From a virus: a DNA stretch of 64,000 nt. Below, one piece after another: positions 7,783 through 50,176 of the stretch (the stretch's first letter is position 1; each line of letters begins with the position of its first letter). The stretch lies in IMG/VR virus record IMGVR_UViG_3300008255_000101, positions 64,001-128,000 of that record; one strand, given 5' to 3'. Below the pieces are notes generated by a model. The model was not told the origin of the DNA and made no database searches. It saw only the letters and a program-made list of their open reading frames with translations. The position numbers were made by a program, and so were the translations under genes.

Positions 7783-7795
7783 ATTAGCAGATTAT
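7783..7795 (-). promoter_or_regulatory. Putative late promoter motif
   Basis: ATAATCTGCTAAT; its TAA is the stop codon of the glycosyltransferase gene. Confidence 0.65.
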
Positions 7796-10700
7796 ATGCC
7801 GGAATCCTGTACCCACTGATCAGCGGCCCTCTCCCAAGTGTACTGGGAGACATGATCTCGCACCTTGTCGGCCTCTACCCTGCGGTAGTCCTCATCCTTA
7901 AGAAGGGCTATCACTTCCCTTAAAAAAGCACCCTGGTACTCCGGAGTCCCACTCCACCGGTGGGGCTCCAAACCTTCGGGACCTTTTATGAATAATCCTG
8001 AAGGTCCTAGGGTGGTCAACAGTCCTCCGTAGGGGGTCGTGACCACAGCATTACCGGCTAACCCGTTCTCCACTGCTGTGATGCAGAAGGTCTCGGAGAA
8101 CCACGTAGGGTATGCCCAAATCTTAGACTCCTTCTGCCGAGTCGCCAGTTCTTTTTTGTTTATGCGGCCCAGGTAGTTCACCCCAGGTTGCTTCATTTGC
8201 TTCTTAATGGCCTCTATACGGTCGAGTCCCACCTGATCACCACGAGTCTTAGCCATGGACTCCCAGTTATGGAATCCGTAAGCTACGTCGATTTCAAAAT
8301 CAGGAATCTCCTTGCGGATTTCTGGAAGCAGGTGTAATAACAACTCTAGACCCCTGTCAGGGGAGGAGCTGTACACCATCTTATTTTTCTTGATGCTATG
8401 GTCGACGTCACCGTAGTTGTCATGACGCACGCCGTTGAAGGTCATCAGCATTTTGTCATTGGGTATGCTGTGATGGGTACCAAAGAAACTCTGGTGCCAG
8501 TCGCTAAGAACTCCAAACTTTTTGACAGCCCATTTCATGGTGTCGTAACTCTTTTCGTGGTGGAGCCACACATCGTGGACCATCACGTAAAGGTTGGTGG
8601 TGTGCATCTTGAATGTTTTTAAGGGCTCACAGGTACGGGATAGGATACACATATCAATGTTTCGGTACTCTACATAATCTTTGAACCGGCTGTGGTGTAA
8701 GTAACTGACACCGTCCCGATCTATTTCCTCTACCTTAGGGTCCCCGAACAAAGTGGTCCTGTAGCCCCTCTTGCTGAACTCAGCGGAAAGCTCAGCGGCC
8801 CAAGTCTCCGACCCAGCCATACCCATGTCTACGTCTTCACGACCCCACTTCTCCCACGCTGGTCCTGTGTAGATAACCACTTCTTTCTTTTCCCACTTTT
8901 TGTGGAACAGTTGGTGGTTGTAGGCGTCTTCCTTATCATAGGATTCCTTGTTTTCCCCCTGGTAAGCCCCTCGGGAGATGCCACCAAAATGGTAAACGAA
9001 AGAGTCCAGGGATTGCCCTATGCGGTACCCCTGCTTAGAAATCCTTCGGGCATGGTCAAGATCCTCACATCCATTTTGGTACTGGGGATCCAGGTAACCC
9101 ACGTCGTTCCAAGCGGACTTGGCAAAGATAGTGGCATAGTAGGCTACCCACGCTTGGTCCATATACTTGCCTTCCAACTCTTTGTTCGAATTTTCCATGA
9201 AGGCGTTTAGCTCATCCAGGCGCGGGATGATTTGATCGTATTTCATACCGGGGACTAGCTCTAAACCGCTTGAAGGAAGTCTCATGTTGAAAACGGGTGA
9301 CTGCGGGTCACGGGGATTGCTGTGTAGCCAACCCCTATCACAATTGGATAGCACACCACAGACGGCCAACCTATCGGTGGTCTCCATCTTTTTAACCATG
9401 TTGGTTAGCCACCCCTTCGATACTAGTACATCAGAATTTAGAATGACAAAGAAACGGGAGTCCCCCGTGGCGGACACTCCATCGTTTACCGCTTCCGAGA
9501 AGTTTTTCCTAACGCCTCTGCTACCCAGAACGGTTATACCCTTAAGGGTGTCCAGGTAAGCCCAGGTGTCCTCATTACTACCCGCGTCCGATACCACAAT
9601 ATGGTACGGGTATAGGGTGTTCATATGAATGGATGTTACGCAGGCCTTTAGGTATTCCACTTCATTGTACACGGGGATAACAATGGGTACGGTCTGCTTT
9701 AGGGCCAGGGACTCGGTAGGTTGTGCAGGGGCTGTAACGGCGGGTACCGCAGGTAACGCCGCAGGTACGCTATTGACAATCTGGTCCGCCTTGGCTACCC
9801 ATTTCTTGGTAATGGCGTCCACAGAAAATTTCTGAGCGACATCCTGTCCGTTGAGGCCGACCTGTATACGCTTCTTGATGTCCTTGAGTTCTCTGAGGGC
9901 CTGTAACCATTCCCCTTTACCGTCACAGATATAACCACTGCGACCGGGTTCTATGAACTCCTTGTAGGCAGGCAGAGGTGAAGCCACCACTGGGATGCCA
10001 AAGGCCATGGCCTGCGCTGCCTTAATGTTGGACTTTGCCGGCTGCACATCAACCCGCTGGGGGCACAGAACCACATCAGCTCGGGACATGACTTCCTGCC
10101 ATGTTTCTAATTCCCATTTTTCGTCGGCATTATCCCACTCGGTACACACCACCAGGTCATAACCCGCCTCAGCTATAACATCTTTAAGGTAGTCTGTCAC
10201 CAAAAAGGAATTACCACCCATACCCATGTAGAGAGCCACCGGGTTTAGGGGTACCCCGTCCTGATCAAATCTACGGAGGAAATGGTCGTGGCTCTTTTCC
10301 ACTTTTTCCACAGCGTCTTCAACCACAGCCAATTTTTTGGAGAAAGGTTTGGCTTTTTCTAAAAGAGCCGAGGAACAAGTTATCACCGCGTCAGCGACAC
10401 CCAGGATCTTCTGGACCAGGGGGTTACCCACCAAGTCTTCGTTTAGATCCACTACGACTTTTATGCCCTTAGCCTGGATGTCCTGAATTAGGCCATACTC
10501 TTCCTCGTCAAAAACGGAAGATACCACCACGTTACTGGAGGATAGTTGGTCTAGCAGCCAGGACCTCTCAGCCTTTTGGTAATTTGTAAAGAGTACAGAG
10601 GTCACTCCCTGTTCCTGCATTTCCTGGTGGATGTTTAGGCGCCTTATACGCTGGGACGGATCCACGGGATTAAAGTACCGTAGTAACCAAGCCACCTTGA

Positions 10701-11841
10701 CTTCTTCATGGGGTTTGCTAGGGGCTCTTACAGGCTCGGGGTCGGGGATGGGGCCATCTACTTTACCGGTGAGAAAGATTTTATTTCTCTGGTAATTGGC
10801 ATCCTCCGGGTAATGCATCAAAAACTCTTCTACCACTTCTAAGGACTTTTTGTATTCCCCCCTGTCGTGGTAAATCTTCATGAGCTTATCAAGTGGGTAC
10901 TTCTTATAAAAGGCGGGCTTAGCCCCAAAGAGCCCCTGGGGGTCCTTGGACTTGGCGGTGAGGAATAGTTGTTCGGCTTCCTGCACGTCCCCCTGATCCT
11001 GGTAATAGCACCCCAAGAAATAGTACACTTCGGCGTACTGGTTGGAGTACATGGAAGCTTTCCTCAAGAAGGACACCGCCGCCACCGTATCATTTTTTGA
11101 AAACGTGTAATAGTTGTACATCTTGAGACAAGCCACTACTTTGTTATGGGCATAATCGGTAGGGCCCTTCAGGTATTCCTCGAATATCTTGACGGCCTCT
11201 TCCTCTTTTTTGTTGTCCATTAAATCTTTGGCGTAGTAGAATTTTATACGAGGGGTAGCATCGCCTCTGTCGTACTCCTTCTTGAGTATCGTTAGGTTGC
11301 GGGTAGGATCGTACTCCCTAGTTCTACGATGGTCCACCGCGATATCCGGTCTTTCCAGTCTTCGGTGCCCGCCATGGGTCAGGATGTACTCGTGGATGGG
11401 GTCATACCACCTGAGATCCTTACCGTTACGGACTATTCTCTCACGGGGGAGCGTTACCGATGGGCGGCCCTGGTCGTCGTGGCCGTAATTGTAAGTGATG
11501 TAAACGTAATCGTACTGGTGAAGGGATTCCTTCATATCCAGAATTTTCTTGTAGTTGTCGGGGGTCAGCTCGTCGTCAGCGTCCAACCACATGAGGTAGT
11601 TGCCGGTAGCCTGATCAAAGCTAAAATTTCTAGCCGCCGAAAAGTCATGCACCCACTCGAACCGAGGGGTCTTGTCAGCATACTTGCGGGCTATGGCCTC
11701 TACCTCAGGATCCTCCTGAGTGAGTGCCACTACGATCTCATCGAACAAAGGACCTTGGACGCTCTTTAGGCATCTCTCCAATTCCTTGGATTCGTTTTTA
11801 CCGACTATGACGCAAAGGGACAGTTTAACCTGTTGACTCAT
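7792..11841 (-). CDS. Multidomain glycosyltransferase GT2-TPR-GT4-GT2-GT4
   Basis: GT2 (WVHDFSAARN, WLDADD), TPR-like helices, GT-B (KSNIKAAQAMAFGIPVVASP), second GT2 (VIPVYN, ILNSDV, GCEDLD) and second GT-B (YSSSPDRGL, ETFCITAVE). Confidence 0.9.
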   Translation of the reverse strand: MSQQVKLSLCVIVGKNESKELERCLKSVQGPLFDEIVVALTQEDPEVEAIARKYADKTPRFEWVHDFSAARNFSFDQATGNYLMWLDADDELTPDNYKKILDMKESLHQYDYVYITYNYGHDDQGRPSVTLPRERIVRNGKDLRWYDPIHEYILTHGGHRRLERPDIAVDHRRTREYDPTRNLTILKKEYDRGDATPRIKFYYAKDLMDNKKEEEAVKIFEEYLKGPTDYAHNKVVACLKMYNYYTFSKNDTVAAVSFLRKASMYSNQYAEVYYFLGCYYQDQGDVQEAEQLFLTAKSKDPQGLFGAKPAFYKKYPLDKLMKIYHDRGEYKKSLEVVEEFLMHYPEDANYQRNKIFLTGKVDGPIPDPEPVRAPSKPHEEVKVAWLLRYFNPVDPSQRIRRLNIHQEMQEQGVTSVLFTNYQKAERSWLLDQLSSSNVVVSSVFDEEEYGLIQDIQAKGIKVVVDLNEDLVGNPLVQKILGVADAVITCSSALLEKAKPFSKKLAVVEDAVEKVEKSHDHFLRRFDQDGVPLNPVALYMGMGGNSFLVTDYLKDVIAEAGYDLVVCTEWDNADEKWELETWQEVMSRADVVLCPQRVDVQPAKSNIKAAQAMAFGIPVVASPLPAYKEFIEPGRSGYICDGKGEWLQALRELKDIKKRIQVGLNGQDVAQKFSVDAITKKWVAKADQIVNSVPAALPAVPAVTAPAQPTESLALKQTVPIVIPVYNEVEYLKACVTSIHMNTLYPYHIVVSDAGSNEDTWAYLDTLKGITVLGSRGVRKNFSEAVNDGVSATGDSRFFVILNSDVLVSKGWLTNMVKKMETTDRLAVCGVLSNCDRGWLHSNPRDPQSPVFNMRLPSSGLELVPGMKYDQIIPRLDELNAFMENSNKELEGKYMDQAWVAYYATIFAKSAWNDVGYLDPQYQNGCEDLDHARRISKQGYRIGQSLDSFVYHFGGISRGAYQGENKESYDKEDAYNHQLFHKKWEKKEVVIYTGPAWEKWGREDVDMGMAGSETWAAELSAEFSKRGYRTTLFGDPKVEEIDRDGVSYLHHSRFKDYVEYRNIDMCILSRTCEPLKTFKMHTTNLYVMVHDVWLHHEKSYDTMKWAVKKFGVLSDWHQSFFGTHHSIPNDKMLMTFNGVRHDNYGDVDHSIKKNKMVYSSSPDRGLELLLHLLPEIRKEIPDFEIDVAYGFHNWESMAKTRGDQVGLDRIEAIKKQMKQPGVNYLGRINKKELATRQKESKIWAYPTWFSETFCITAVENGLAGNAVVTTPYGGLLTTLGPSGLFIKGPEGLEPHRWSGTPEYQGAFLREVIALLKDEDYRRVEADKVRDHVSQYTWERAADQWVQDSGI

Positions 11842-12010
11842 TTTCGGGTCCTTTCTCTGATATGTGATTTGATCGGAAATCCGCCAGTGCTCTTCGGGCT
11901 TCTTCTTGGGGATCCGTCATACGGGACGCAGCAAAAGACAAGAACCACTCTTTAAGTTGTGGGTCCACTCTGATAGACCACGTGGTCTTGCTGTTGTTTT
12001 TAGTCCGCAT
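11825..12010 (-). CDS. Ribbon-helix-helix (Arc/CopG-like) DNA-binding protein
   Basis: 61 aa, TTWSIRVDPQLKEWFLSFA strand-helix-helix pattern. Overlaps the GT start. Confidence 0.65.
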   Translation of the reverse strand: MRTKNNSKTTWSIRVDPQLKEWFLSFAASRMTDPQEEARRALADFRSNHISEKGPENESTG

Positions 12011-12030
12011 ACGTATACAAGTGCATACGT
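12011..12030. promoter_or_regulatory. Imperfect 20-bp palindrome, candidate RHH operator
   Basis: ACGTATACA-AG-TGCATACGT between the promoter motif and the RHH ATG. Confidence 0.5.
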
Positions 12031-12031
12031 T

Positions 12032-12044
12032 ATTAGAAGATTAT
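12032..12044 (-). promoter_or_regulatory. Putative late promoter motif
   Basis: ATAATCTTCTAAT, overlapping the TAA stop of 12041..12652. Confidence 0.7.
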
Positions 12045-12652
12045 CGGTTGTATGTTATAACGTCGGCAACGGTAAGCATGGTACGGTACCTTCCAAGTCT
12101 TTCCTCGGTGAAAAAAGTGTTGGGGGTGAAACCGTACAACCACATCACACTTTCCCTAAACGAACCCGTTAGCAGGAGAGGTACCAGCTGCATTGTCTGA
12201 GCAGCTATTTCCAAACTGGAGAAACCCTCCAAGCTAGGACTAGATATACACTCCTCTCGGAACAGGGCTATAAACTCAAAACCGACCATCATATTTTGAT
12301 TTACTTCCGTGGAGTTATCCACTACTGCCTGAAGCCGGGTGCAGTTGACCTGGTACTCGATCCTAAACCTTTCTTCTGTTACGAGCACACCAAAACAATC
12401 CAATACCTCGTGATCCCCGAAGGACTGCAAAACAAGGTACGCTTCGTTTACCCAAAATGTTTTAGAGTTGTAAATGCATGACCCATCTACAAAAGTTACA
12501 CGGCTTACGTAGTTCATGTCTTTAATGTCCTGTAAAAAGGTGTATGTGAAGCTATCATGGTCGGCTAGGGTGTTTATGTAGGACAGAGCTAAAGCTTGGG
12601 TGTCGAACTTTCCTACCAGAATGCCTGTGGTTTCGTTTAGTGCGTATATCAT
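12041..12652 (-). CDS. Hypothetical protein (possible fibre chaperone)
   Basis: 203-aa ORF at the end of the fibre operon. The function is positional inference only. Confidence 0.5.
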   Translation of the reverse strand: MIYALNETTGILVGKFDTQALALSYINTLADHDSFTYTFLQDIKDMNYVSRVTFVDGSCIYNSKTFWVNEAYLVLQSFGDHEVLDCFGVLVTEERFRIEYQVNCTRLQAVVDNSTEVNQNMMVGFEFIALFREECISSPSLEGFSSLEIAAQTMQLVPLLLTGSFRESVMWLYGFTPNTFFTEERLGRYRTMLTVADVITYNR

Positions 12653-13239
12653 TCCATTACCAGGGTTAGGGTTGGACGAGTGGCTGAGGACGTGGAGGCT
12701 ACATTAGCATTGCCGCCCGTGGATAGAGACCATTCATATACGTCCCAAGTGTTACTTGTACCTACCCCTACGATTTTTTTAGTCGTGTAGCGCTCCCCCA
12801 ACCAAAACAAGTAGGTAGTGCCGGAAGTCAAAGTAGCCCGAGACCCTGAGGCCCATGTTTTGGTGTGGGTGTACTTTGTATCCGCTCCCAAGGTCCCCCC
12901 GTTAACAAACGACACACCCGATGTGGAATTGATACCGATAAACCCAGCAAGGGGTACGGCGTTACTGCCAGACGCTGTCCATATACCCCAGCAGTAGTTA
13001 TACGCCTGGGTGGTGTTGTAGGTCATGGACATGGATACTAGAACTTGATTCGACGGGGGGGTGTACTCCACAAAAAGGGCATAAGCCGAGCTATCCAACC
13101 ACTCTTCTGTAGGGCCGGCGCCCACCTCCCAAAGTATATCCCCTCCCCTAACAACCTGAACGATGTTGTTAGAACCCAGGGCGATCTCGCTCACCCCGGC
13201 TGTGAAAGAATCCATTTGGATGTTAGTAATACTGGCCAT
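12649..13239 (-). CDS. Ser/Thr/Gly-rich beta-sandwich fibre-tip-like protein
   Basis: Composition, and position immediately after the collagen/GH8 protein. Confidence 0.5.
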   Translation of the reverse strand: MASITNIQMDSFTAGVSEIALGSNNIVQVVRGGDILWEVGAGPTEEWLDSSAYALFVEYTPPSNQVLVSMSMTYNTTQAYNYCWGIWTASGSNAVPLAGFIGINSTSGVSFVNGGTLGADTKYTHTKTWASGSRATLTSGTTYLFWLGERYTTKKIVGVGTSNTWDVYEWSLSTGGNANVASTSSATRPTLTLVME

Positions 13240-13240
13240 A

Positions 13241-15814
13241 TTAACCTATGAGGAAATACATCCTACCCGCTATACGGGATGATACTGCGGGCATAGCTGT
13301 TACCACTTCGATGGAGCTTACCGGGTAGGAGGATCCCGTGGCGCCGGCTACAAATAAAGCTGTGGACGGTGTAGCCCCTGTAACTCCCCTAAGACCTGTG
13401 ACGCCTTGAAGTCCGGCACCCGTCAACCCCCTTAAGCCCGTCAGTCCTCGCAAACCCGTAACTCCCCTTAATCCCGTAACACCCTGGATACCCTGGATAC
13501 CCTGGATACCCTGGATACCCGTTACTCCCTGAATACCTACACCTGTTAATCCTCTGAGACCAGTTACTCCGGGTACACCCTGTAAGCCGGTTACTCCTTG
13601 GGTACCTATCCCTGTAGCTCCCGGAGTCCCTGCTAACCCGGTCACACCCCGTAACCCCGAACCAGTGGCCCCCTGAGGCCCAAGTAGACCAGTGACCCCC
13701 TGAGGTCCCGTGACACCTCCTGATGAGTTACCCGTCACAGACGTCCAGGTGTTAGCACCCCAAGTCAGACCCTGCACGGATCTGTAGTTGATAGCGCCTG
13801 AGCTATTAAAGGAAACCTGCATGCGGTACGGATTACTCCCGTCATCCGGGGGTATGAAGTTCAGGACATAAGTCGTCTCCATAGCCCCCGTAGCGGTGGA
13901 CTCCTTCTGCAGGTCACCGTTTATGGAACCCATACCAAACGACTTTATGGATAAGTAAAAATAGTCAGTATCATCGAAAGTGTTACCCACGGCAGCTTGC
14001 ATAGCATCGTTGGCTACGGCCTCCGAAACTGTGGCGCATAATCTCATGGGTGCCAGTATCGATAGCATCCCCAAGGAGTCCAAATGGGTACCGAAGCTCC
14101 CAGTCACGTCGATTACCAGGGCGCAAGCCGCTACGGGGTCGGCGTCCGATATGCAGGATAACAACGTGGCGTTAGTAGCTATGTTGTTTAGATAGGTATA
14201 CACGGCGGGGTCCCCATAGGCGTCATAGGCACTCACTAGCTGCTGCAGCACCCTACAGGCATCATAACCGTGCCCCTTAACACTCGACCCCGCTATGTCA
14301 TTACCGTCGTAGTCACACCAGTTACTGGGTAACCCGTACATGGCCGAATTCTTAGTCTGGTTCTGCTGGAGCAACCATAGCCCATCGTCGTAGACAGTGT
14401 CCCAACCCCTGCTGGGGTCTTGTAGAGAGAACGTGCGTATCGCTTCCAAGTCGATGTAGGAAGGATTGCAGTAGCTGTTCCAGCTATCCCCGGGCCCTAT
14501 CAACCTTTTTGTACCGCTCCCTGTGGTAGCATTGAATGTGTCAAAGTTGTAGATGTTGGCCAGCATGCTTAGGGCATCAGCCTTGTGGGAAGCGTCACCA
14601 AATTTCCCATACATGGTGAATAATATTTGGGCCACATGGATATCCGCATCGGAAGCTGAACCTGATCCCGTAACAGTACCCGTAAAACCTTGCACCTGCC
14701 AGTTCATCAGACCGCGGCTGCTTAGGTTGTCATTCCAGTATGCAAAAAGTTTGTTGAACTTTGTAACATAGGGCGATGAGGGGGAGTCAGCCACGAAAGC
14801 AGCAAGCATCATACCGTAGGAAATACCCTCAGATACAGTGAGTTCGCCAGTGAGGTGGTTTTCATCTATCCATTTTATACGGGCTAGCGTGCCGTCCACA
14901 TTCTCTTCGTAGAACTGGGTGAACCAGGAATCCACGTAGTCCTTGAACTGCTGAGAGTACGTGGCGTGGTTTTGGAAGGTTATGCCGTGGGAGTACATAT
15001 AGCCCGTTCCGTTTAGGACCACTTTGTACACTGTGAAGTTAGATGTGGTCTGCTCCGTGTCGTACTGGAACTGAAGCCCCACTAACTCGCTCAGGGGTAT
15101 GTCCCTAACGGTTCCAAAACCCGAAGGTTGGGCAAAATCGGACCACACTAACTCTAGAGTGGATTCCGCAGCTGCTATGGGTAAAGTTGTGAACCAGGAG
15201 GCTCCGTCCCCAGACAAATGGTCCCGGAGTTGCAGCTTTAGGGCTGTGTCCGATTTATAGGTTACAGTGACACCCATGTAGGTGCTAATGTCCACCGTAG
15301 GCTTGTCAGGTAAGGCCAGTGCCGAGGATTCCTTAAAGTCGAAATTAACACCACCGTAGGGGTACTGCCCCGCGCCGGAATTACCCAATAGGGCTACTGT
15401 TACGGCTAGGGACCCAGTGTCCAATTGTTGTTGTAGATCCCCGACGGCCGGGTCCACGGTAGAACCCAAAGCGTCAATGAAAGACACCCAGTTACCAATG
15501 GTAGCACCTGATGAGTCCCTGCAAAGTATTGGTAGGCTATTGCAATCGGTTAGTACCACATCATTAGTATTCTGGGGATATGTGTAAGTGGGTACAGTCA
15601 CAGACCCAGTCTTGGTGTCAGACAGGTATAACCCTGGCCCCGTGGCCCCGTTTGGGTCACTTTGCATCTGGGCCACTAGCTCATTAGCACTTAGAGCGTG
15701 CCAAGCACTTAGGGCCTCATGGTACTCAAATTTTGTATCCCCCACAACACCTACTGTCAAGTCTGCAGGGGAGTCTGCTTTTAGTGCCTCTATGCTCTCA
15801 TAAACTACGATCAT
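13241..15814 (-). CDS. CBM11/CIA30-like + GH8 glycoside hydrolase + collagen-like fibre protein
   Basis: CBM11-like ([33 protein letters not shown]). GH8 motifs [42 protein letters not shown]-terminal G-x-T/G-x-Q collagen triplets. Confidence 0.85.
13375..13715 (-). repeat. Collagen-like coding repeat ([12 protein letters not shown])
   Basis: 9/18-nt periodic sequence. Boundaries approximate. Confidence 0.85.
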
Positions 15815-18800
15815 GCTTTGATCCCCACGAAGTATCTAGTTGTGGACTCATTTCCCGCTGTCAGGGTACTGGCCGGAGGAGTGCTCTGGTTATCAAATTT
15901 CATTGCAAGGTACGGCGCTATATTGAAATTAGAAGCAGCCGATACCCCCGCGAATACGGGGGAGTTCATAGTGGTTACTATGCCCAGGTAGTAGATGCTG
16001 CCTCCCGTCAAAGTGTATGTAGACCCCGATACGAAATTACTGAGGGTGTAGCTCCTTAAACCAGCGGAAGGGTTTGTGTTTATAGACGTGTAGGCTACCA
16101 ACGACAGGGTGCTGCCTGACAGGGAGTACAGGACATAGTATAGATCTCCCCCTGATGGCTGTATCAGGAGGGCTTCCATTGTTGACGTCGTGGTGATAGC
16201 CATATCCCCGCTTGGTATCATTATGCTCAGGTGCATGGTGCGGGTATTGACGGTAAGTGCCGCTGCAGATATAGCCGAAGCTGGCAGTAGCGTCCTTTCG
16301 TAGGCTACAGAACCTCCTCCTCCAGACGGTCCCGTAGATCCGGGTACACCGGTTACTCCCTGGGTACCAGTATAACCTACACCAGTTACACCCTGGCTAC
16401 CCTGCAGACCTGTGACACCACGTAAACCAGTTAAGCCCCTAATGCCTGTAACACCCTGAACACCAGTGGCACCCTGGGGACCTGTGGACCCTTCGGCACC
16501 AGCCGCTGAAGCAGATGCGGCTCTTGAGATAGTCAGGTTATCTACACGGTATAGAGACCAGTTCCCGCCCTGGTAGTAGATAATGACGCGAGCCATAAAG
16601 GTGTATTCCAGAGAGAAACTAGGGAAATCCCCTAGTGCTAAACTCTGGGCGCTAAGAGCTTCCTGGCTACTGGCACTTCCTGCGGATTGACCCTGTATCC
16701 ATAGATACCTCTTGGCTTGGCTAACTGCATCTGCCGCAGCGGGTACCCCCATTAGCCATACGGCCATGTAGGTATTATTTGACATGGGGGTCTGTGTCCA
16801 GGTACCTCCCGAGTTCTGGTTATAGAACGGCGTGTTTCCGCTTAGCGGGACTATGTCAGACGCAGTCGTATTAAATGTAGCTGTACCTGTTCCTGTCCCC
16901 GTGAGGGAGTATTGGCAGTAAACACCACTTGTTAGTGCTGTGGACAGGGTGAGTAGGTCCTCGTCCTTGATGACTGTAGACGCTACATCCGGCCTTCTAT
17001 CGGCCACGGTGGTACTAGCCAAAACATAGTTACTGAGGGAACCACCTGACTCCCTGTAAGTACCCACCACCTCATGGAACTCTCTATGATCCTCCCACGG
17101 CATGGCCAACCCGTGACACTCCCTAATGGAGTATAGGTAGGTACCTGCGCTGTTATACACCACATAGGTTATCTGCAGCATGTCAAAGGACCACGGTGTG
17201 GTGTCCCACACGTAGGACGTACCATTATAATAAAGGAACAGAGGGGCCGTTGGGGATGCCGAGTGGGCGGGGGACACCCACCCGCTAGTAAGATCTGGTA
17301 TTAGTACACCCCGCCAATAGGCTTTAAACGTGCCAGTAAGTGCTACAGTACGGGAGGCGGAGTTGTAAGTTACTACGGGGGCCGACGTATCGTCAAAACC
17401 AGTGGGGTCTTTTAGAAGATCCTCATAACCAGTGGCTACACCAGTGGCGCCCTGGATACCGGTGTTACCCTGAGATCCGGTGTACCCCTGGATTCCTGTG
17501 GCACCCTGCACGCCTGTTGTTCCTTGAATACCTTGGGCTCCAGTAGTTCCTTGGGTACCTTGAACTCCTGTTGCTCCCTGAATACCTTGGGCTCCAGTAG
17601 CACCTTGGGTACCTTGAACTCCTGTGGTACCCTGAATGCCTGTTTCCCCTTGGATTCCCTGAATACCTTGGATTCCTTGAATTCCTTGGACTCCTGTTGT
17701 TCCTTGAATACCTTGAACACCAGTTGCTCCTTGAATACCCTGAATACCTGTGGCACCCTGGATTCCTTGTACACCAGTTGCTCCTTGAATACCCTGAACA
17801 CCAGTAGCACCCTGAATACCTTGGGCTCCAGTAGCACCCTGAATACCTTGGATTCCTTGAACGCCTGTAGATCCCTGGATTCCTTGAACCCCCGTCGACC
17901 CTTGGATACCCTGAACACCAGTTGTTCCTTGTACTCCTGTGGCACCTTGGATACCTTGGACTCCAGTTGCTCCTTGAGCGCCTGTTTCCCCTTGGATGCC
18001 CTGTACGCCAGTAGCACCCTGGATTCCTTGAACACCAGTAGTTCCTTGTAAACCAGTTACGCCCTGGCTACCGGTGTTACCTTGAACGCCTGTAGATCCC
18101 TGGACACCTGTTGTCCCTTGGGCACCCTGAACACCAGTAGCGCCTTGGGCACCTGTACTCCCTACGAAGTCCGCCCAGTACATAGTAGTGCCATCGTAGG
18201 TCAGGGCCTGGCCCAACGTGGGGTTTAGACCTGTTAGGCCCATTAGCAACTGGGCATAAATGACACCCTCTTTGGTCCACCTTCCCGTAACTACATTGTT
18301 GAAATCTTCTATTTCTAGGACTGCCCCACCGGTAATACCCGTCCCGTCCGCTATAGTTAAGGGTCCACCTAAGATGCTAGTAACTATCTCTGGGTCAGGT
18401 GAGTTGTCGTAGGCCTTTTGTAAAGTGGTAACGCCCACTGCACCAGCTCCTGCCACAACCTCACCTAATTTGGAGACACCTACGAAGGAGGCCTCTGTGG
18501 GGTCACTTAGGGAGGTGGCACCCTGCTGCACAGCCAGAACTCCGTATAGGGTGGCGTTTTCTTCTACGTCCTTCAACTTATTAAACACTTCTCTCTCCAC
18601 ACCCGCTACGGAATCTGCCAGGTTACCGTACACCTGCTGACCGTACTGCACAACGGTTCTGCCCGAGGCATACAAATAAAATCTCTGATTTGTGAATTTG
18701 TTGTTGGGTACGGCAGTTTTGGTACCGTTTAAATCGTAGAAGTTGGGGGAGATAAAAGTGGTAGGAGATTCCTCAGTGTTTGGGTCCTGGGTAGTGTAGC

Positions 18801-19917
18801 TAAATGTCAGGGGGGTAGCGACTGGGATCCCCTTAGTGTGGAGGTCCTTCACTTCTGTGCCGAAGTTTATACCGTTTCCAAACAGCGTACCCTCAGACTT
18901 GTTTAACCTAAGGTCCCCATCGTGTGGGGATAGCACGTTACCGCTTACATTTATGAACCCTAGTGCGGCCATAAAATCTCTTAACTGGGAGAAAGGTGAT
19001 ACAGACACATCTGGTTGCGTGTTAGCTACAGTTATGCTCGTGCGGTTTCTGTGCACCACCTTACCCAGCCAAACGTAATCCCTTCTTTCTGCGTTGGTGG
19101 GCTTGGTTGCGTAACTCAGCACGTTGTACTCTTTGTCCAGCAATACGTAGGTACTGTCCTGCGTAGCTAAGTTCGGAGGGGACACCCCCGTGGTACCGTT
19201 CCACTTTAGCTCTGTAATCGACGGAAAGTCGGGGTTAGACCAATCGTCTACCACAATAGCGGTTCCACTAGCTATGTCGTATTTTGTGCTGTCCAAGGGA
19301 TTGATTGATAGGGCCCCTCCTTCTATTAATCCTGTGGAATTGGACCACAAGGATCCCTTACTCATGTGGTCTAGGGGTAACCTGCCTACAGTGTCCAATG
19401 GGGCTATGCCACCCGAAGCTCCCACAGCCGCGTCAAAGGTATCAAACGCTCTCTGGACCTGGGTGTCCGCGACCGAAAGAATATTCGCGAAATTGCTTGT
19501 GTCCAGAGATATACCACTGGCGCCTTGGTGTTCTCCAACGTAGGTCATTACTGCCTGGCTGGTGGGGATAGCCGTGGACGGGCCTGTCTCGCCTAGTACG
19601 AGAACTTCACTAACTAGCACTATCTCTGAAGGCTTACTGTCCAACCCTATCAAGGCCTTGTATGCCTCGGTTCCTTTGGAACTGAGAAAGTTAGCGGTCT
19701 TGTCCGTTAGGGTATACCTGTCTTGTCCAGTTATCTCCTGGCCATCCATATCCCATAAACTTACGTTACCCTGAGTTATGGCGCTAAGGAGGTCACCCGC
19801 AAAATTTCCAAAAATTAGGGTATTGTAAAAGACTTCCTTCGTTTCCCCTGTAGCAAATGTCACCCCGTTAAGACTAAGGGGCGCTCCGCTGGTATTCTCT
19901 ATACTTTTGATTTCCAT
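15811..19917 (-). CDS. Collagen-like fibre protein (1368 aa)
   Basis: Long (GATGVQGIQ)n block flanked by two related globular domains, plus a second short collagen block. Confidence 0.85.
17440..18160 (-). repeat. Collagen-like coding repeat (GATGVQGIQ)n
   Basis: 18/27-nt periodic tandem repeats. Boundaries approximate. Confidence 0.85.
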
Positions 19918-19926
19918 AATACAGCC

Positions 19927-22900
19927 TTAGGGGGTCTCTGGATCAGTGCTCTCGAACACAAGATTGAGCATGAATCTAGCCGCAGCATTTATTTGATTAT
20001 TATTACTGCCTAAATTCGTGAACTGCCACCCAATCATGTCGTTAGCATTTCCTGTTATTCCTGTTATTCCTACGGCACTTACCTCTTGGTAAGCGGTAGT
20101 TCCCAAATTATTGTAGATACCGCACAGGGTTGGGTTGATATCGAGATCGATACTACCTATGGAGGTTCGGGAGGTACCGTCAAGCACGAATAACTCAATC
20201 CTTATCTTCGGGGAAGTACCCACCGTGCCCTGAGCAACAGCACACCTGGCTATGTGGCCATAGGCCGCTACCAACTTCCACCCGAAAGGAGTGACGTAGG
20301 GGTGAACACCTCCGTCCTGAAACTGTATGGAGCTATGTGTAAGTGGGGCCCCAAATGGATTGGCATTTCCAGATTGGATGGAGAAGTACCCCAGGGTACT
20401 AGACGCTTGTCCCATCATACCTGATAGCACGTAATCCCTAGGACGAGGACCTTGGCCTACGGGGCCAGTCTCACCCTGGGATCCGGTTTCTCCCTGTATG
20501 CCCGTGGCGCCTATCAATCCTGTTACGCCCTGGATACCCTGTACACCGGTAACGCCCTGGGCACCTGTGGCTCCTTGCACACCAGTCACACCCATCAGTC
20601 CCGTACTTCCGTCAGGTCCCGCATTACCAGTTATACCCTGGTACCCCGTGGCACCATCGGGACCCACGGACCCAGTCAGTCCATCCTCACCCGTCACACC
20701 TTGAGTGCCGTTGGCTCCTGTGATGCCTTGGACTCCCTGGATACCGTTGGCACCTGTTAAACCTTGTACGCCCTGAGAACCTGTCACACCCTGGACACCC
20801 ACAGCACCAGTGATACCCTGTATTCCTTGAGTACCCGTGACACCCTGGGTTCCCGTGCTACCCTGGACTCCGTTAGCACCTGTGGTGCCACGTAAACCTG
20901 TAATACCCTGAAGCCCTGTGATGCCCTGAGAACCGGTGATGCCCTGCACCCCGTCGAGTCCCGTGACACCCCGTGTACCCTCGGCGCCGGTGATTCCCTG
21001 TGTGCCATCGGCGCCGGTGATTCCCTGTACTCCATCAGTCCCAGTAATACCCTGGACACCGTCCGCTCCTGTGACACCGCGGAAACCTGTCAGTCCTTGT
21101 ACTCCGTTGGTACCCGTGATACCCTGGGTACCGGCTATGCCTTGAGTACCGGTAACACCCTGAAGGCCCTGAAGACCGGTGATACCGTCAAAACCAGTAT
21201 CCCCCTGGGATCCCTTTTCGCCAGTGATTCCCTGGGCACCGTCCGTTCCTGTAACACCCTGGATACCGTTGGCGCCTGTGGTGCCCTGCACTCCCGCGAT
21301 CCCCGTGATACCCTGCACACCCGCGGCACCAGTAGCACCCTGAAGGCCTTGAGTACCTGTGATACCGCCGAACCCAGTATCCCCCTGAGGACCCTGGTCA
21401 CCTGTGATGCCTTGAACACCGTCAGTACCAGTGGTTCCCTGCTCCCCTGCCACACCTTGTTGCCCTGTAATTCCTTGGACACCGCTTGCGCCCGTAATTC
21501 CTCTAATACCGGTGATGCCCTGGGTACCCGTATTACCTTGGGTACCAGTAACCCCTTGGTTACCGCTAGCACCAGTAATACCCATTAGACCGGTGATACC
21601 AGGTAAGCCGGTCTCTCCCTGAATGCCTTGTTCACCCGTGATACCCTGAGGACCTTGAGACCCAGTTATGCCTTGGGCGCCCGGAGAACCTGTTTCACCC
21701 GCAGGACCATAGGGTCCCGTTACTCCTTGGGAACCCGTGGTACCCTGTATACCCGTAGGTCCTTGGGAACCTGTGGCCCCCACCCCGGTGGATCCTTGGA
21801 TACCTTGGGTACCAGTCTCTCCTTGGGTACCAATACCTGTTTCACCTTGAACGCCTGTTTCTCCCTGGACGCCCGTTAATCCCTGGGACCCGGTGGCTCC
21901 TTGAATACCCTGAACACCAGTAGCGCCTTGAACACCAGTAGCTCCTTGAATACCCTGAACGCCTGTTGCTCCTTGAATACCCCGAACACCGGTAGCACCT
22001 TGAATGCCCTGAACACCGGTAGCACCCATTAAGCCCGTTGACCCATCGGGGCCGGGATTACCTGTGATACCCTCGAACCCAGTAATACCCTGAACACCGT
22101 CCACGCCTGTTATACCGCGGAAACCTGTAGGACCCTGGGCTCCCTCAGCACCTGTTAGACCGGCAGGTCCTGAAGGGCCTGTAAGACCTCTTGCACCTGT
22201 GTCCCCTTGGACGCCTTCAATACCCGTGAGACCCTGTAATCCAGTGTCGCCTTGAACACCATCAACACCTGTGAGGCCCTGTGCCCCCGTATCCCCTTGG
22301 ACGCCTTCCGAACCTGTGGCTCCTGCGGACCCCGTGATGCCCTGGGCACCAGTGTCCCCTTGTACGCCATCTACACCTGTAGGGCCCTGAACGCCCGTGT
22401 CACCCTGTACGCCTTCTGACCCGGTAACACCTTGAGCACCTGTGGCTCCCACACCCGTGGCGCCTGGGATACCCTGAATACCAGTTTCACCTTGGGTCCC
22501 TACACCAGTTTCACCTTGGGTACCTGTGGCACCCATTAAACCTGTGGATCCGTCTGGACCAGGGTTACCCGTGATACCGTTGAAACCTGTTAAACCCTGG
22601 ATACCGTCGGTACCAGTTATGCCTCGGAAACCTGTTAAGCCCTGGATACCGTTGGCACCGGTAATTCCGGTTACTCCCGTGATACCTTGGAGACCCGTTA
22701 GGCCTTGTTCGCCCTGGACACCGTTGAAACCGGTGGTTCCTTGAACACCGCTGCCACCTGTTATGCCCTGGAGACCAGTAGAACCCTGAGTGCCCTGTTC
22801 GCCAGTAATACCCTGGGGTCCCTGGGAACCGGTAATACCCTGAGCACCGGGGGAACCTGTTTCTCCAGCGGGACCGTAGGGACCTGTTTCTCCAGCGGGA

Positions 22901-24108
22901 CCCGTGGATCCGGACACACCAGTGGGGCCTTGGGAACCTGTGGCCCCCACTCCCGTTGAACCTTGAATGCCCTGAATACCAGTTTCACCCTGGGTACCTA
23001 CACCTGTCTCACCTTGGCTGCCTGCGCCAGTGTCACCTTGGGTACCTGTGCTACCCTGGATTCCTTGGAGACCAGTCTCACCTTGTACTCCGGTAGCACC
23101 TCTTAAACCTGTCGACCCATCCGGGCCCGGGTTACCCGTGATACCCTCAAAACCTGTTAAGCCTTGTATGCCCTCAGAACCAGTTATGCCCTGGAAACCT
23201 GTAGGACCTTGGGAGCCATCAGCACCTGTAAGTCCCGCCGGACCGGCTGGACCAGTAAGTCCCCTTGCCCCCGTGTCGCCTTGTACGCCTTCAATTCCAG
23301 TAGGTCCTTGAAGACCTGTGTCGCCTTGCAGGCCCTGCACACCAGTGTCGCCTTGCAGGCCCTCGGATCCAGTAGCACCCACAGAACCCGTTACGCCCTG
23401 GGTACCTACAGGACCTGTAATGCCCTGATCACCAGTGTCACCCTGGACACCGTCGATACCCGTAGGGCCTTGAACGCCCGTGTCACCTTGTACACCTTCA
23501 GCACCAGTCACACCCTGAGCGCCCGTGGCTCCCACACCGGTGGCGCCCTGTATTCCTGTGTCACCCTTGGCACCCGTAGCACCCTGAGTGCCAGCACCGG
23601 TCTCGCCTTGGAGACCCGTAGCACCCATCAAACCTGTGGAACCGTCGGGTCCTGGACTTCCCGTAATACCTTCGTACCCTGTTAGGCCCTGGATACCGTC
23701 CGCACCAGTTATACCTGAATCACCCGTGATGCCCTGGATCCCTGTAACTCCTGAAGTACCCGCAGGACCCGTCACCCCTTGAGGTCCGGTAACCCCTAAA
23801 CCTGTGTCCCCCTGGGGCCCAGTGGGGCCGTCGCTCCCTATGTAACCGATACCCGTAACGCCCTGTACACCAGTGGGCCCCTGGGGCCCTGTTATTCCTG
23901 GTCCCGTGTAGCTAGAGGAGCCACCTCCAGAGCAAATCCACTCCGTTCCATTGTAATACTCTAAGCAACCTGTAAGTCCGGCAGGGTTCGAAGTGTCCCC
24001 GTGGTAGATTACGTAACCCTCTTCAGCCACTAGGCTATCCCTCTCCGCCGTGGTAAGTACGGGAAGTTGAACGATTCGGCCTTTGTGTTTAATATTCAGG
24101 GTTTTCAT
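19927..24108 (-). CDS. Very long collagen-like fibre protein (1393 aa)
   Basis: About 1150 aa of G-x-y triplets dominated by G-x-T and G-x-Q. N-terminal [10 protein letters not shown]...GYVIY...LEYYNGTEW fibre module and a C-terminal globular domain. Confidence 0.9.
20450..23905 (-). repeat. Collagen-like coding repeat with higher-order duplications
   Basis: GPDGSTGL(M/R)G recurs five times and a ~1.1-kb block is duplicated. Boundaries approximate. Confidence 0.85.
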
Positions 24109-24150: not shown

Positions 24151-24163
24151 ATTAGTACATTAT
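24151..24163 (-). promoter_or_regulatory. Putative late promoter motif (variant)
   Basis: ATAATGTACTAAT upstream of the fibre operon. Confidence 0.55.
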
Positions 24164-24197: not shown

Positions 24198-25307
24198 CTA
24201 CCTAGCGTACACCCAGAGTTTGTATAGAGCCAGGCTCGTGTCGATATTTATCTTGACCACATCGTCCGATGTATTGGACCAATCGAAAGACCTTGTCCTT
24301 ACTCTCATTTCGGAAACAGAGCTATCGTGAGCGGTGGAATCCATCCTGAGATTACGGGGCCTTCCGTGCTTTGTGAGGCACCCCTGTATGAGAGTTTCAC
24401 CCAGTATGCCGAAGTCCGCCAAGTTAGGTTTACCGTCATTAACTGAGTCGTTACCTTCCGCCGTGTTGTTGGTGGTGTACAACATAGCACTAGGGTAGTT
24501 GGTATCGTTGCTGTCGTCATTAAAGTAAAGATGGACGGTGGCTAGCGAATTGTTTGAAAAATGGGAGCATTCCACTTTGATATTGCTATAAACTGAGGGG
24601 TCCCAGGTTATGGATCTCTGCGTCGTCTCTGGAGCACTGAGGCTGCTGAAAGAATCTAGGAGTACCCAGTCGCTAGGGGGAGCTGCCGGCGCGGATGCTC
24701 CCGTGGCACCTTGGGCGCCATCGATACCGTAGATACCACCTGGGGTGGGCAGGTATCCTGAGGTGGACACAATTGTTAGGTGCCAAGTCCCCACTATAGG
24801 GGTTCCGTCAACTAGAGACACTTCCACATTGTAGAGGTCCGCAGCACGTATCTCCGTGGGAAGAACGAGTTGGTTCAAATTATCGTACACCTGGACAATT
24901 ACTGATTCAGATCCCAGGTTGTGGTACACGGGTAATATGTCATTAACAAGGTCAGCCTGTGTGAAGGACCTAGCGTAAGAACCTATGCTATTGCAACCAC
25001 CCGTCTGGGAGATCAAGGTCACTCGCCAGGTTCCGGTTATGGGGGTACCGTCCACCAGAGAAACATCAACGTCGTACCCGTCGTTAATAATTATTTCAGA
25101 CGGCAACACTAACTGGTTGTTTTCATCGTACACCTGCACAATGACATTCTCGGTGCCAAAAGTATGATGCACGTTCACTATGTCGTCGACCAGGTCAGCT
25201 TGAGTGAACAGCCTAGTGAAAGCGCCTACACCGTCCCCGGCACAACCCGTATAGCCACCACCTCCACCACCGCCGTATGCCGGGCTCTGTACGAATCCTA
25301 GCATCAT
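24198..25307 (-). CDS. Fibre/appendage protein with two tandem beta domains
   Basis: Two copies of FTQADLV.DI..V.H..G.E.VIVQVYD..NQLVLP.EI...VSLVDGTPI.GTW. Confidence 0.7.
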   Translation of the reverse strand: MMLGFVQSPAYGGGGGGGYTGCAGDGVGAFTRLFTQADLVDDIVNVHHTFGTENVIVQVYDENNQLVLPSEIIINDGYDVDVSLVDGTPITGTWRVTLISQTGGCNSIGSYARSFTQADLVNDILPVYHNLGSESVIVQVYDNLNQLVLPTEIRAADLYNVEVSLVDGTPIVGTWHLTIVSTSGYLPTPGGIYGIDGAQGATGASAPAAPPSDWVLLDSFSSLSAPETTQRSITWDPSVYSNIKVECSHFSNNSLATVHLYFNDDSNDTNYPSAMLYTTNNTAEGNDSVNDGKPNLADFGILGETLIQGCLTKHGRPRNLRMDSTAHDSSVSEMRVRTRSFDWSNTSDDVVKINIDTSLALYKLWVYAR

Positions 25308-25930
25308 TAGTAGTGCACCACTATCCTTACGTCGGCTATGTCGCCGTCGGTTATGATGGAGACTCCGTTGTCCTTAGAAAGATTTCTGAAGATGGTGTAG
25401 TACACCAAGGGGTATACAGGCATGCTCTTGGTTACCGTAGCGTCCACTCCCGTTATATCCACGTAGACCACTGCAGTCTTGGCCGCATTGGAGTTATTGA
25501 ATATCTCCATGAAGGTCACATCGTGTGTGAACTTGATGCGGGTAGCATTTGAGTTTGCTACGTGAGTGGATATATTCTCTGACGCTGTGATGGGACTGTT
25601 TAGGGCCCCCGCGTCGGCCATCTGGTCCGCGATGTAGGGAATCAACCTAGGTGTACCCAAAGACGATTCAACCGAGGACCCGTCTACCGAAGTGATGGAC
25701 AGGTAGAAGGTGTCGCCCTCGGTAAGGCCTATTTTGGCTCTGTTAAAACTCGCAGAGGTGGCCCTCTTACCAAAAGTTCCAAAATTAGGGATGTTGTCCT
25801 GCAGCAAGTTAAAAGTTCCCGCAGACCCTGTGGGGGACCAGTACAGCCTAAATTTTTTCGCACCAGGAAGTAAGTCCCAGTACACTGTGATCTTTTCGGA
25901 ATTCTCGTGGAGCTGTATAGCGGGCAACAT
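25307..25930 (-). CDS. FN3-like structural protein
   Basis: ITVYWD..PGA..FRLYWS...FYLSITSVD..VES FN3-type pattern. Confidence 0.65.
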   Translation of the reverse strand: MLPAIQLHENSEKITVYWDLLPGAKKFRLYWSPTGSAGTFNLLQDNIPNFGTFGKRATSASFNRAKIGLTEGDTFYLSITSVDGSSVESSLGTPRLIPYIADQMADAGALNSPITASENISTHVANSNATRIKFTHDVTFMEIFNNSNAAKTAVVYVDITGVDATVTKSMPVYPLVYYTIFRNLSKDNGVSIITDGDIADVRIVVHY

Positions 25931-49905: not shown

Positions 49906-50176
49906 CTTGGCCTTCCTTGCTCTTCTTGGGTCCCTTAGGGATGTACCCATTTCCGTTTTCTTCCCGATACTCTTTTTGGTACTGGTTGCGGTACTCTCTC
50001 GTATCTGTCACATTGTTACTCTTGCGCCGTGGAGGCTTATCATTTGGCATTTTCAAAAACGGCTTTTCCTTCGTGGAAGAGCCGTCCTCCAATAACCGGG
50101 ATTCTTTGTTCTCCACCATTTCCTGAGCCAGCTTTCGTAGCTCGGACGCTATGATCAACTTCTTAGTCAATTCCAT
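49898..50176 (-). CDS. Small basic protein with IASELRKLAQE leader
   Basis: 92 aa directly downstream of the portal. Confidence 0.55.
   Translation of the reverse strand: MELTKKLIIASELRKLAQEMVENKESRLLEDGSSTKEKPFLKMPNDKPPRRKSNNVTDTREYRNQYQKEYREENGNGYIPKGPKKSKEGQDG

Follow-up and report, generated by a model that had tools for sequence, protein, structure and literature searches.

A candidate phage-encoded system for O-glycosylation of collagen-like virion fibres, centred on a four-domain glycosyltransferase

The closest described counterpart of the system considered here is the SgtA/BclA3 pair of C. difficile. SgtA is an enzyme of 358 amino acids (aa), with a GT2 domain at residues 1-255 and a tetratricopeptide repeat (TPR) domain at residues 262-358, and its gene is the immediate upstream neighbour of bclA3, which encodes a collagen-like glycoprotein of the exosporium. 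In vitro, SgtA adds beta-O-GlcNAc to Thr residues of collagen-repeat peptides, among them a G-A-T-G peptide with a single site (PMC7157674). A second relevant enzyme is GmaR, the flagellin O-GlcNAc transferase of Listeria (PMC9638930). Here we analyse a viral stretch of 64,000 nucleotides (nt), comprising bases 64001-128000 of the 150-kb IMG/VR record IMGVR_UViG_3300008255_000101 and referred to below as the window. It carries a gene for a 1349-aa glycosyltransferase, the N-terminal module of which resembles these enzymes, downstream of three genes for collagen-like fibre proteins. We propose, with a probability of roughly 0.58 and on the strength of sequence comparisons, that these genes form a phage-encoded system that O-glycosylates its own virion collagen fibres. 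The record is 32% complete by CheckV, which places the whole phage genome at roughly 470 kb.

The glycosyltransferase and its priming module

The GT2-TPR-GT4-GT2-GT4 architecture that an earlier note on this DNA had assigned to the 1349-aa protein was confirmed by domain annotation with Pfam, PHROG, NCBIfam and PDB profiles. The gene and its parts, all on the minus strand, are as follows.

7792-11841, minus strand: glycosyltransferase, 1349 aa, GT2-TPR-GT4-GT2-GT4 (Pfam, PHROG, NCBIfam and PDB-profile matches)
10747-11841, minus strand: residues 1-365, GT2 (GT-A) plus TPR, putative priming module, SgtA/GmaR/SunS-like
9742-10704, minus strand: residues 380-700, first GT-B domain (GT4-like; PF13692/PF00534/PF13524 at 565-667)
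8887-9699, minus strand: residues 715-985, second GT2 domain (PF00535 at 720-847)
7795-8886, minus strand: residues 986-1349, second GT-B domain (GT4-like; phrog_2170 at 1076-1345)

Within the N-terminal module, the GT2 domain occupies residues ~1-200 (PF00535/PF10111) and the TPR domain residues ~235-358, with Pfam TPR repeats at 249-353. The best non-designed PDB match of the family profile was Listeria GmaR (22ao, E 1.2e-28). The same search returned SunS (7msp, E 1.1e-20; 7msn, E 3.3e-20, residues 5-313) and the chain 7msk (E 2.7e-16), the latter aligned over the GT-A and helical domains at residues 10-359. Similarity to SunS/ThuS/GmaR-type enzymes over these two domains is significant, and the NCBIfam SunS model TIGR04195 matched the module with E 2.4e-10, below the family cut-off. 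GmaR and SunS/ThuS, its best solved relatives, are protein or peptide glycosyltransferases.

More than 2000 shorter relatives were found for residues 1-365, and the named ones are stand-alone GT2-TPR proteins of Bacillota, 353-367 aa long, which match the phage module end to end with 31-39% identity. We scanned the 80 best cellular loci, all from Bacillota except for one stray contig of a metagenome-assembled genome (MAG), for collagen-like open reading frames (ORFs) with at least 30% Thr at the Y position of the G-x-Y triplet. Such an ORF was present within 8 kb in 47 of the 80 loci and within 600 bp in 37, mostly on the same strand. Five of these genomes encode only ~2-9 collagen genes per 3-8.5 Mb, and adjacency of a GT2-TPR gene and a collagen gene by chance would be well under 1%. 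The 37 adjacent pairs generalise the sgtA-bclA3 arrangement and provide the strongest evidence that the phage module may act on collagen Thr. The phage module also has the layout of SgtA-type enzymes: a GT2 domain with a DxD motif, a TPR domain directly after it, a module length of ~358 aa and an adjoining Thr-rich collagen gene. Ten collagen-less cellular loci were sampled, and their neighbours were heterogeneous, with three GT2-methyltransferase fusions and no flagellin gene. As a separate observation, in three Bacilli loci with a GT2-TPR gene lacking a collagen neighbour (L039, L051 and L081), the adjacent gene often encodes a GT2-methyltransferase fusion.

The remaining three domains have solved relatives of several kinds. 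For the first GT-B domain, matches span residues 565-688, with the best Pfam 'group 1' stretch at 580-652; among solved chains, Bacillus group-1 glycosyltransferases (2jjm, 3mbo) come nearest to it. Solved matches of the second GT2 domain are chondroitin synthase (2z87) and GalT1 (5hea), and the second GT-B domain is MshA/PimA-like by PHROG, NCBIfam and PDB profile searches. In an alignment of 23 phage homologues, invariant residues include D87-x-D89-D90 in the first GT2 domain (also invariant in 17 mixed sequences), D752, N802-S803-D804 and E926-D927-x-D929 in the second GT2 domain, and E1250 of the E1250-x7-E1258 motif in the last GT-B domain; the first GT-B domain has invariant residues as well. 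Given that the catalytic motifs (DxD/ED/ExE) are kept across this alignment, all four domains look catalytically competent.

The position of an insertion bears on the last domain. A stretch of ~1.2 kb interrupts the gene at residue ~1253, beside E1250, in loci L009, L012, L016 and L017 (~13830-15100 of each locus), and the insertion at this residue is found in proteins P0045, P0047, P0063, P0068, P0071 and P0075. It carries precomputed Pfam labels for intein and LAGLIDADG and is, on that basis, a probable intein. Inteins usually occupy essential catalytic sites, and placement beside the invariant E1250 therefore argues that the last GT-B domain is likely to be active. Taken together, priming of Thr on the fibres by the GT2-TPR module is well supported by inference, and it is plausible that the other three domains extend the glycan, the evidence for this 'assembly line' being the conserved catalytic motifs and the fusion itself.

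Homologues of the enzyme number 382, of which ~100 are full-length at 40-62% identity, many of them on contigs of 100-470 kb. In split variants, the N-terminal module is encoded by a separate ORF directly upstream (L022, L025). Other variants carry a fused methyltransferase domain (P0049, P0084, P0090, P0091 and P0108), for which methylated sugars are possible. P0090 is annotated as part of a Nitrosarchaeum MAG and probably derives from a mis-binned phage contig.

Collagen-like fibres and their linkage to the enzyme gene

The three collagen-like proteins that the earlier note had placed upstream of the enzyme were recovered as ORFs on the same strand, with the enzyme gene 1.4 kb downstream of the last one.

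19927-24108, minus strand: fibre protein C, collagen-like, 1393 aa, 375 G-x-y triplets
15811-19917, minus strand: fibre protein B, collagen-like, 1368 aa, 102 triplets in three runs
13241-15814, minus strand: fibre protein A, collagen-like, 857 aa, a GH8 domain, then 32 triplets, with the C-terminal 56 aa conserved

The description of their triplets as overwhelmingly G-x-T did not hold. Thr occupies 39% of Y positions overall (198 of 509 triplets) and Gln 36% (183 of 509), and the repeat in all three proteins is of an alternating G-x-T/G-x-Q type that is poor in Pro. Per protein, Thr accounts for about 37-41% of Y positions and Gln for 22-54%, with 39% Thr and 32% Gln in fibre C and 37% Thr and 54% Gln in fibre B, where GATGVQGIQ is the dominant repeat. 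If the collagen part of fibre C formed one continuous triple helix, it would be ~320 nm long.

Outside its repeats, the N-terminal part of fibre B matches the tail-fibre family phrog_16641 (residues 187-541, E 1e-29), and the 70-aa N-terminus of fibre C is conserved in the related loci L002, L003 and L013. Fibre A carries a GH8 domain (PF01270, E 1e-16; NF008305 BcsZ, E 2.5e-13), which suggests a fibre-borne beta-glucan or cellulose depolymerase. Glucanase domains are typical of fibres that degrade host surfaces. Among relatives, the non-collagen domains are not conserved and the short terminal anchors are, as expected of exchangeable fibres.

The C-terminal head of fibre C (172 aa; window 19930-20445, minus strand) was modelled as a jelly-roll with a predicted local distance difference test (pLDDT) score of 87. 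A lead from Atlas, 'BclB-related', scored 0.91. Foldseek returned TNF-family and ExsFA matches with probabilities of 0.97-1.0 but template-modelling (TM) scores of only 0.3-0.4, and the VIA aligner matched it to many jelly-roll folds, phage fibre tips among them, with Z-scores reaching 8.3. A BclA-like head was not established by these comparisons: Foldseek pointed to a TNF-like fold and VIA to a generic jelly-roll. The modelled fold fits a receptor-binding head and is not specifically that of BclA. The same 172-aa domain is C-terminal in 129 protein clusters of widely varying length, in some of them after collagen repeats, and corresponds to no Pfam family. Giant collagen genes occur in relatives, with an open frame of 6593 aa in G017 (L018) and one of at least 2814 aa in G019 (L020).

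We examined the co-occurrence of enzyme and collagens in phages, which the earlier note had named as a check on its proposal. Viral contigs scanned with the protein alone gave no match, and an alignment-based scan of IMG/VR gave 24 loci. In 14 of the 24, a collagen-like ORF lies within 10 kb of the enzyme gene, in lineages only 32-53% identical; 21 records contain such an ORF somewhere, and the other three are fragments of 10-16%. Collagens are again adjacent in distant lineages with enzymes only 32-44% identical (L008, L011, L018-L025), and the enzyme is conserved as a virion-module gene in related phages of 200-470 kb.

Near-complete genomes allow the position of every collagen gene to be compared with that of the enzyme gene, and in three of four all of them are next to it or within ~15 kb. 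G019 (356 kb, with terminal repeats) has a single, giant collagen gene that runs across the terminal repeat and is divergently adjacent to the enzyme gene. In G024 (424 kb), the enzyme gene occupies 332-337 kb and all collagen genes lie on either side of it, at 323-328 and 341-345 kb; those of G022 (211 kb) lie within ~15 kb of the enzyme gene. A control with a conserved neighbouring marker yielded three extra contigs, all fragments of 9-14%, two of which lack both enzyme and collagen; this is weakly consistent with linkage. The co-occurrence was thus borne out in the 14 loci and in three of four near-complete genomes, but not in one subclade (L004, L005, L007, L009, L010 and L014-L017), in which the enzyme gene adjoins the conserved 145-aa gene and the collagens are distant, at least 60 kb away in G004. 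The linkage of enzyme and collagens is frequent and recurrent across divergent lineages, and it is not universal.

Genome setting and alternative explanations

Nearly all genes of the window lie on the minus strand, and the region showed no megablast match to cultured phages. The genes for the terminase, portal and head-maturation protease are upstream of the enzyme gene on the same strand, and thus the collagen and enzyme genes belong to the virion module of this huge, uncultured phage. The features of this setting are listed below.

60076-62040, minus strand: terminase, upstream of the enzyme gene
50163-52076, minus strand: portal, upstream of the enzyme gene
42374-44008, minus strand: head-maturation protease, upstream of the enzyme gene
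24198-25930, minus strand: two cassette-linked genes (369 aa and 207 aa) preceding the collagens, with homologues in L002, L003 and L013
24151-24163, minus strand: promoter-like motif ATAATGTACTAAT, one mismatch, in the 89-nt gap upstream of the first collagen gene (fibre C)
12649-13239, minus strand: 196-aa protein of the collagen cassette, function unknown, homologues only in L002, L003 and L013 at the same position
12041-12652, minus strand: 203-aa protein of the collagen cassette, function unknown, homologues only in L002, L003 and L013 at the same position
12032-12044, minus strand: promoter-like motif ATAATCTTCTAAT, exact, heading the glycosyltransferase unit
11825-12010, minus strand: 61-aa ORF overlapping the start of the enzyme gene, with a 53-65% identical ORF in the same place in L002, L003 and L013

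The promoter-like motif ATAATCTNNTAAT was recognised by aligning the gaps upstream of minus-strand genes. With one mismatch allowed, the window contains 15 copies compared with 0.67 expected; 14 of them are on the minus strand, each in a short gap upstream of a gene, and two of these overlap the final bases of the gene before. Site positions include 5636, 7783, 12032, 24151, 25973, 29200, 33640, 42325, 44818, 49585 and 52770. Among 16 close relatives, ten have the motif 213-279 nt upstream of the enzyme gene, against a background of ~1 per 10 kb of strand. The suggestion of the earlier note that both units carry the same putative promoter is therefore right as to the sites at 12032-12044 and 24151-24163, but this promoter-like motif is a general one in the virion module, shared by units other than those of the collagens and the enzyme. 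Two ACGTATGC direct repeats, 16 nt apart, between the 12032-12044 motif and the ATG of the 61-aa ORF could be a candidate operator. The string GCTTACCG, which occurs in both upstream regions, does not belong to the promoter-like motif and was discarded as a promoter element: it stands 1 nt from the motif in one region and ~25 nt from it in the other, and further copies fall inside genes.

As in virion glycosylation of the mycobacteriophage type, the glycosyltransferase gene lies in a virion module, with virion genes upstream, a shared motif and conserved synteny. In the window's subclade (L002, L003 and L013), the gene order is 145-aa zinc-ribbon gene, 207-aa gene, 369-aa gene, collagens, 196-aa gene, 203-aa gene, 61-aa ORF and enzyme. 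The 369-aa protein has a weak PHROG match to 'virion structural protein', and this gene and the 207-aa gene are found only where the collagen cassette adjoins the enzyme gene. The 196-aa, 203-aa and 61-aa ORFs intervene between the collagens and the enzyme gene; the first two have no match in Pfam, PHROG or NCBIfam, and the 61-aa ORF, which by eye looks ribbon-helix-helix-like, has no family match.

Several observations weigh against glycosylation of the fibres. The collagens beside the cellular enzymes are of the GPT type, with Thr typically at 50-95% of Y positions, and those of the phage have the mixed, Pro-poor composition given above. Cellular collagen loci contain virtually nothing comparable to the three extension domains, and the fusion is therefore a phage feature. 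Among 50,697 phage records, the enzyme finds a match in only 12, whereas the G-x-T/G-x-Q repeat is recognised by dozens of tail-fibre PHROGs, and Thr in the phage repeats may be purely structural. In a second group of loci (L005-L007, L009, L010, L012 and L014-L016), the enzyme gene comes straight after the 145-aa gene, so that the collagen cassette is a movable insert beside a conserved enzyme gene. Given a conserved enzyme and movable collagens, the enzyme may have another, conserved acceptor. Finally, in G004 (467 kb) the collagens lie at 33-42, 354 and 367-374 kb and the enzyme gene at ~290 kb, at least 60 kb from any of them.

A related fused enzyme occurs in a smaller phage. The 42.6-kb podovirus MW202524.1 from Manatee Spring (L124, 1-14177) encodes a 761-aa GT2-TPR-GT fusion in a glycosylation cluster. 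The cluster directly follows the major capsid gene, includes three more glycosyltransferases and two methyltransferases, and surrounds a 598-aa Gly-rich protein with 26% Ser and Thr. No collagen gene is present within the 14.2 kb examined, a further point against glycosylation of the fibres.

A first alternative is that the enzyme glycosylates other phage or host proteins, for example conserved capsid, tail or neck proteins, and that its proximity to collagens reflects a shared virion module. We consider this unlikely, although it is the best-placed competitor. It would account for the fixed position of the enzyme after the 145-aa zinc-ribbon gene, with the collagen cassette there only in the window's subclade, for the distant collagens of G004 and for the podoviral cluster, and capsid and tail-tube glycosylation is documented in mycobacteriophages (Freeman et al. 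2023, as cited in PMC12619734). However, among cellular proteins, the nearest relatives of the priming module have Thr-rich collagens as their specific genomic partners, and in three of the four near-complete phage genomes every collagen gene is grouped around that of the enzyme. Candidate sites elsewhere are also few: outside long collagen runs, G-x-T-[GA] is not enriched in the large virion proteins of the window and reaches two copies each only in two small proteins (178 and 145 aa), compared with 0.1-0.2 expected.

It is improbable, and less likely than an alternative protein acceptor, that the four domains make or remodel a polysaccharide or host envelope glycan (exopolysaccharide or O-antigen-like), with the TPR domain docking on host machinery. 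An alternation of GT2 and GT4 within one multi-domain enzyme is typical of polysaccharide polymerases, chondroitin synthase is the best solved match of the second GT2 domain, and PHROG labels such genes 'moron / host takeover'. Yet no flippase, polymerase, lipid-carrier or nucleotide-sugar gene is found nearby, and two nucleotide-sugar families are absent from the 150-kb record. Moreover, the N-terminal module groups with protein and peptide transferases and not with polysaccharide synthases, and the enzyme gene stands under the virion-module promoter-like motif amid virion genes. Glycosylation of phage DNA (hypermodified bases, to evade restriction) is a role often taken by phage glycosyltransferases (10.1101/2023.12.21.572611), but is very improbable here given the lack of a hydroxymethylase, TET/JBP or methyltransferase partner adjoining the enzyme gene, the virion-module position, the TPR domain and the homology to protein-directed enzymes.

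We thus favour O-glycosylation of the collagen fibres. The earlier proposal is supported in part. Its priming of Thr-rich collagens by a GT2-TPR module has strong comparative support, from the Bacillota homology, from the 37 of 80 loci with an adjacent Thr-rich collagen and from the protein-directed relatives; the G-x-T triplet that it had taken as a sign of glycosylation is a weak one, as this repeat type is common in phage fibres.

Proposed mechanism and comparison with known systems

Late in infection, the virion-module promoter would drive two units, one encoding the three collagen-like fibres and the other the soluble four-domain glycosyltransferase. In the cytoplasm, the TPR part of the N-terminal module would bind unassembled or assembling collagen chains, and the module would prime the Thr residues of G-x-T triplets with a sugar taken from a nucleotide-sugar of the host, in the manner of SgtA acting on BclA3. 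The other domains (GT4, GT2 and GT4), tethered to it, could then lengthen this into a short glycan of defined structure; each set of three chains would offer up to ~200 Thr. All donors would come from the host, as nucleotide-sugars. Neither an epimerase nor an NTP-transferase gene for their synthesis was found in the 150-kb record, which represents only 32% of the genome. Fibres with a sugar coat and a length of roughly 30 to 320 nm would result, in which the glycan would most likely stabilise the Pro-poor triple helix and shield it. In this scheme we infer the acceptor, the donor sugars, the order of domain action and the effect on the fibre.

A bolder version, which we put forward only tentatively, is that one 1349-aa polypeptide is an assembly line in its own right for the whole glycan. 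After priming by the SgtA-like module, the three tethered extension domains would complete a defined oligosaccharide on hundreds of fibre Thr residues, with fibres reaching ~320 nm, producing a bottle-brush, exosporium-like coat in a clade of 200-470 kb phages without recourse to a host glycosylation pathway.

To our knowledge, mycobacteriophages are so far the only phages with experimentally documented glycosylated virions, on which the glycans alter antibody recognition. If glycosylation of the fibres is correct, virion glycosylation would be much more widespread, the SgtA/BclA system of spores would be linked to viruses, and a compact soluble enzyme that places defined glycans on collagen-like peptides would be of interest for biomaterials. 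Our literature search found no paper linking SgtA-type enzymes to phage fibres.

Among known systems, the likeness to SgtA/BclA3, judged by the published description of SgtA (PMC7157674), is the closest. In both cases a GT2 domain is followed by a TPR domain in a module of ~358 aa, represented in the phage by the N-terminal 365 residues, and the gene lies beside Thr-rich collagen-like genes, a pairing shared with the 37 of 80 cellular loci. The G-A-T-G context accepted by SgtA is the dominant context in phage fibre B. Unlike SgtA, the phage module is fused to three more glycosyltransferase domains that are missing from the cellular loci, and unlike BclA3, the candidate acceptors extend up to ~320 nm and have a Thr/Gln, Pro-poor repeat rather than GPT. 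GmaR (22ao, PMC9638930) and SunS/ThuS (7msp, 7msn, 7msk), the best solved relatives of the module, are likewise cytoplasmic GT-A enzymes with a helical or TPR acceptor-binding part and protein or peptide acceptors. In contrast to the phage enzyme, they are single-domain proteins without a collagen partner, and they modify Ser/Thr of flagellin or Cys of sublancin-type peptides.

Viral systems share other features. Multi-domain construction has a parallel in A064R of PBCV-1, which builds a glycan on a virion protein in a eukaryotic host and is unrelated in architecture to the phage enzyme. In mycobacteriophages, as here, phage glycosyltransferases are encoded among virion genes, and there the phage's own structural proteins are O-glycosylated (Freeman et al. 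2023, Cell Host Microbe, cited in PMC12619734). The mycobacteriophage acceptors are, however, the C-termini of capsid and tail-tube proteins, the enzymes there are small separate proteins, and collagen plays no part. Mimivirus combines virus-encoded collagens with virus-encoded glycosyltransferases (PMC9546862), but it glycosylates hydroxylysine and not Thr, in eukaryotic hosts and with enzymes of unrelated architecture. The components of the phage locus are therefore of known kinds, represented by SgtA/BclA3 and by mycobacteriophage virion glycosylation, and what is distinctive is the four-domain fusion conserved across a clade of huge phages.

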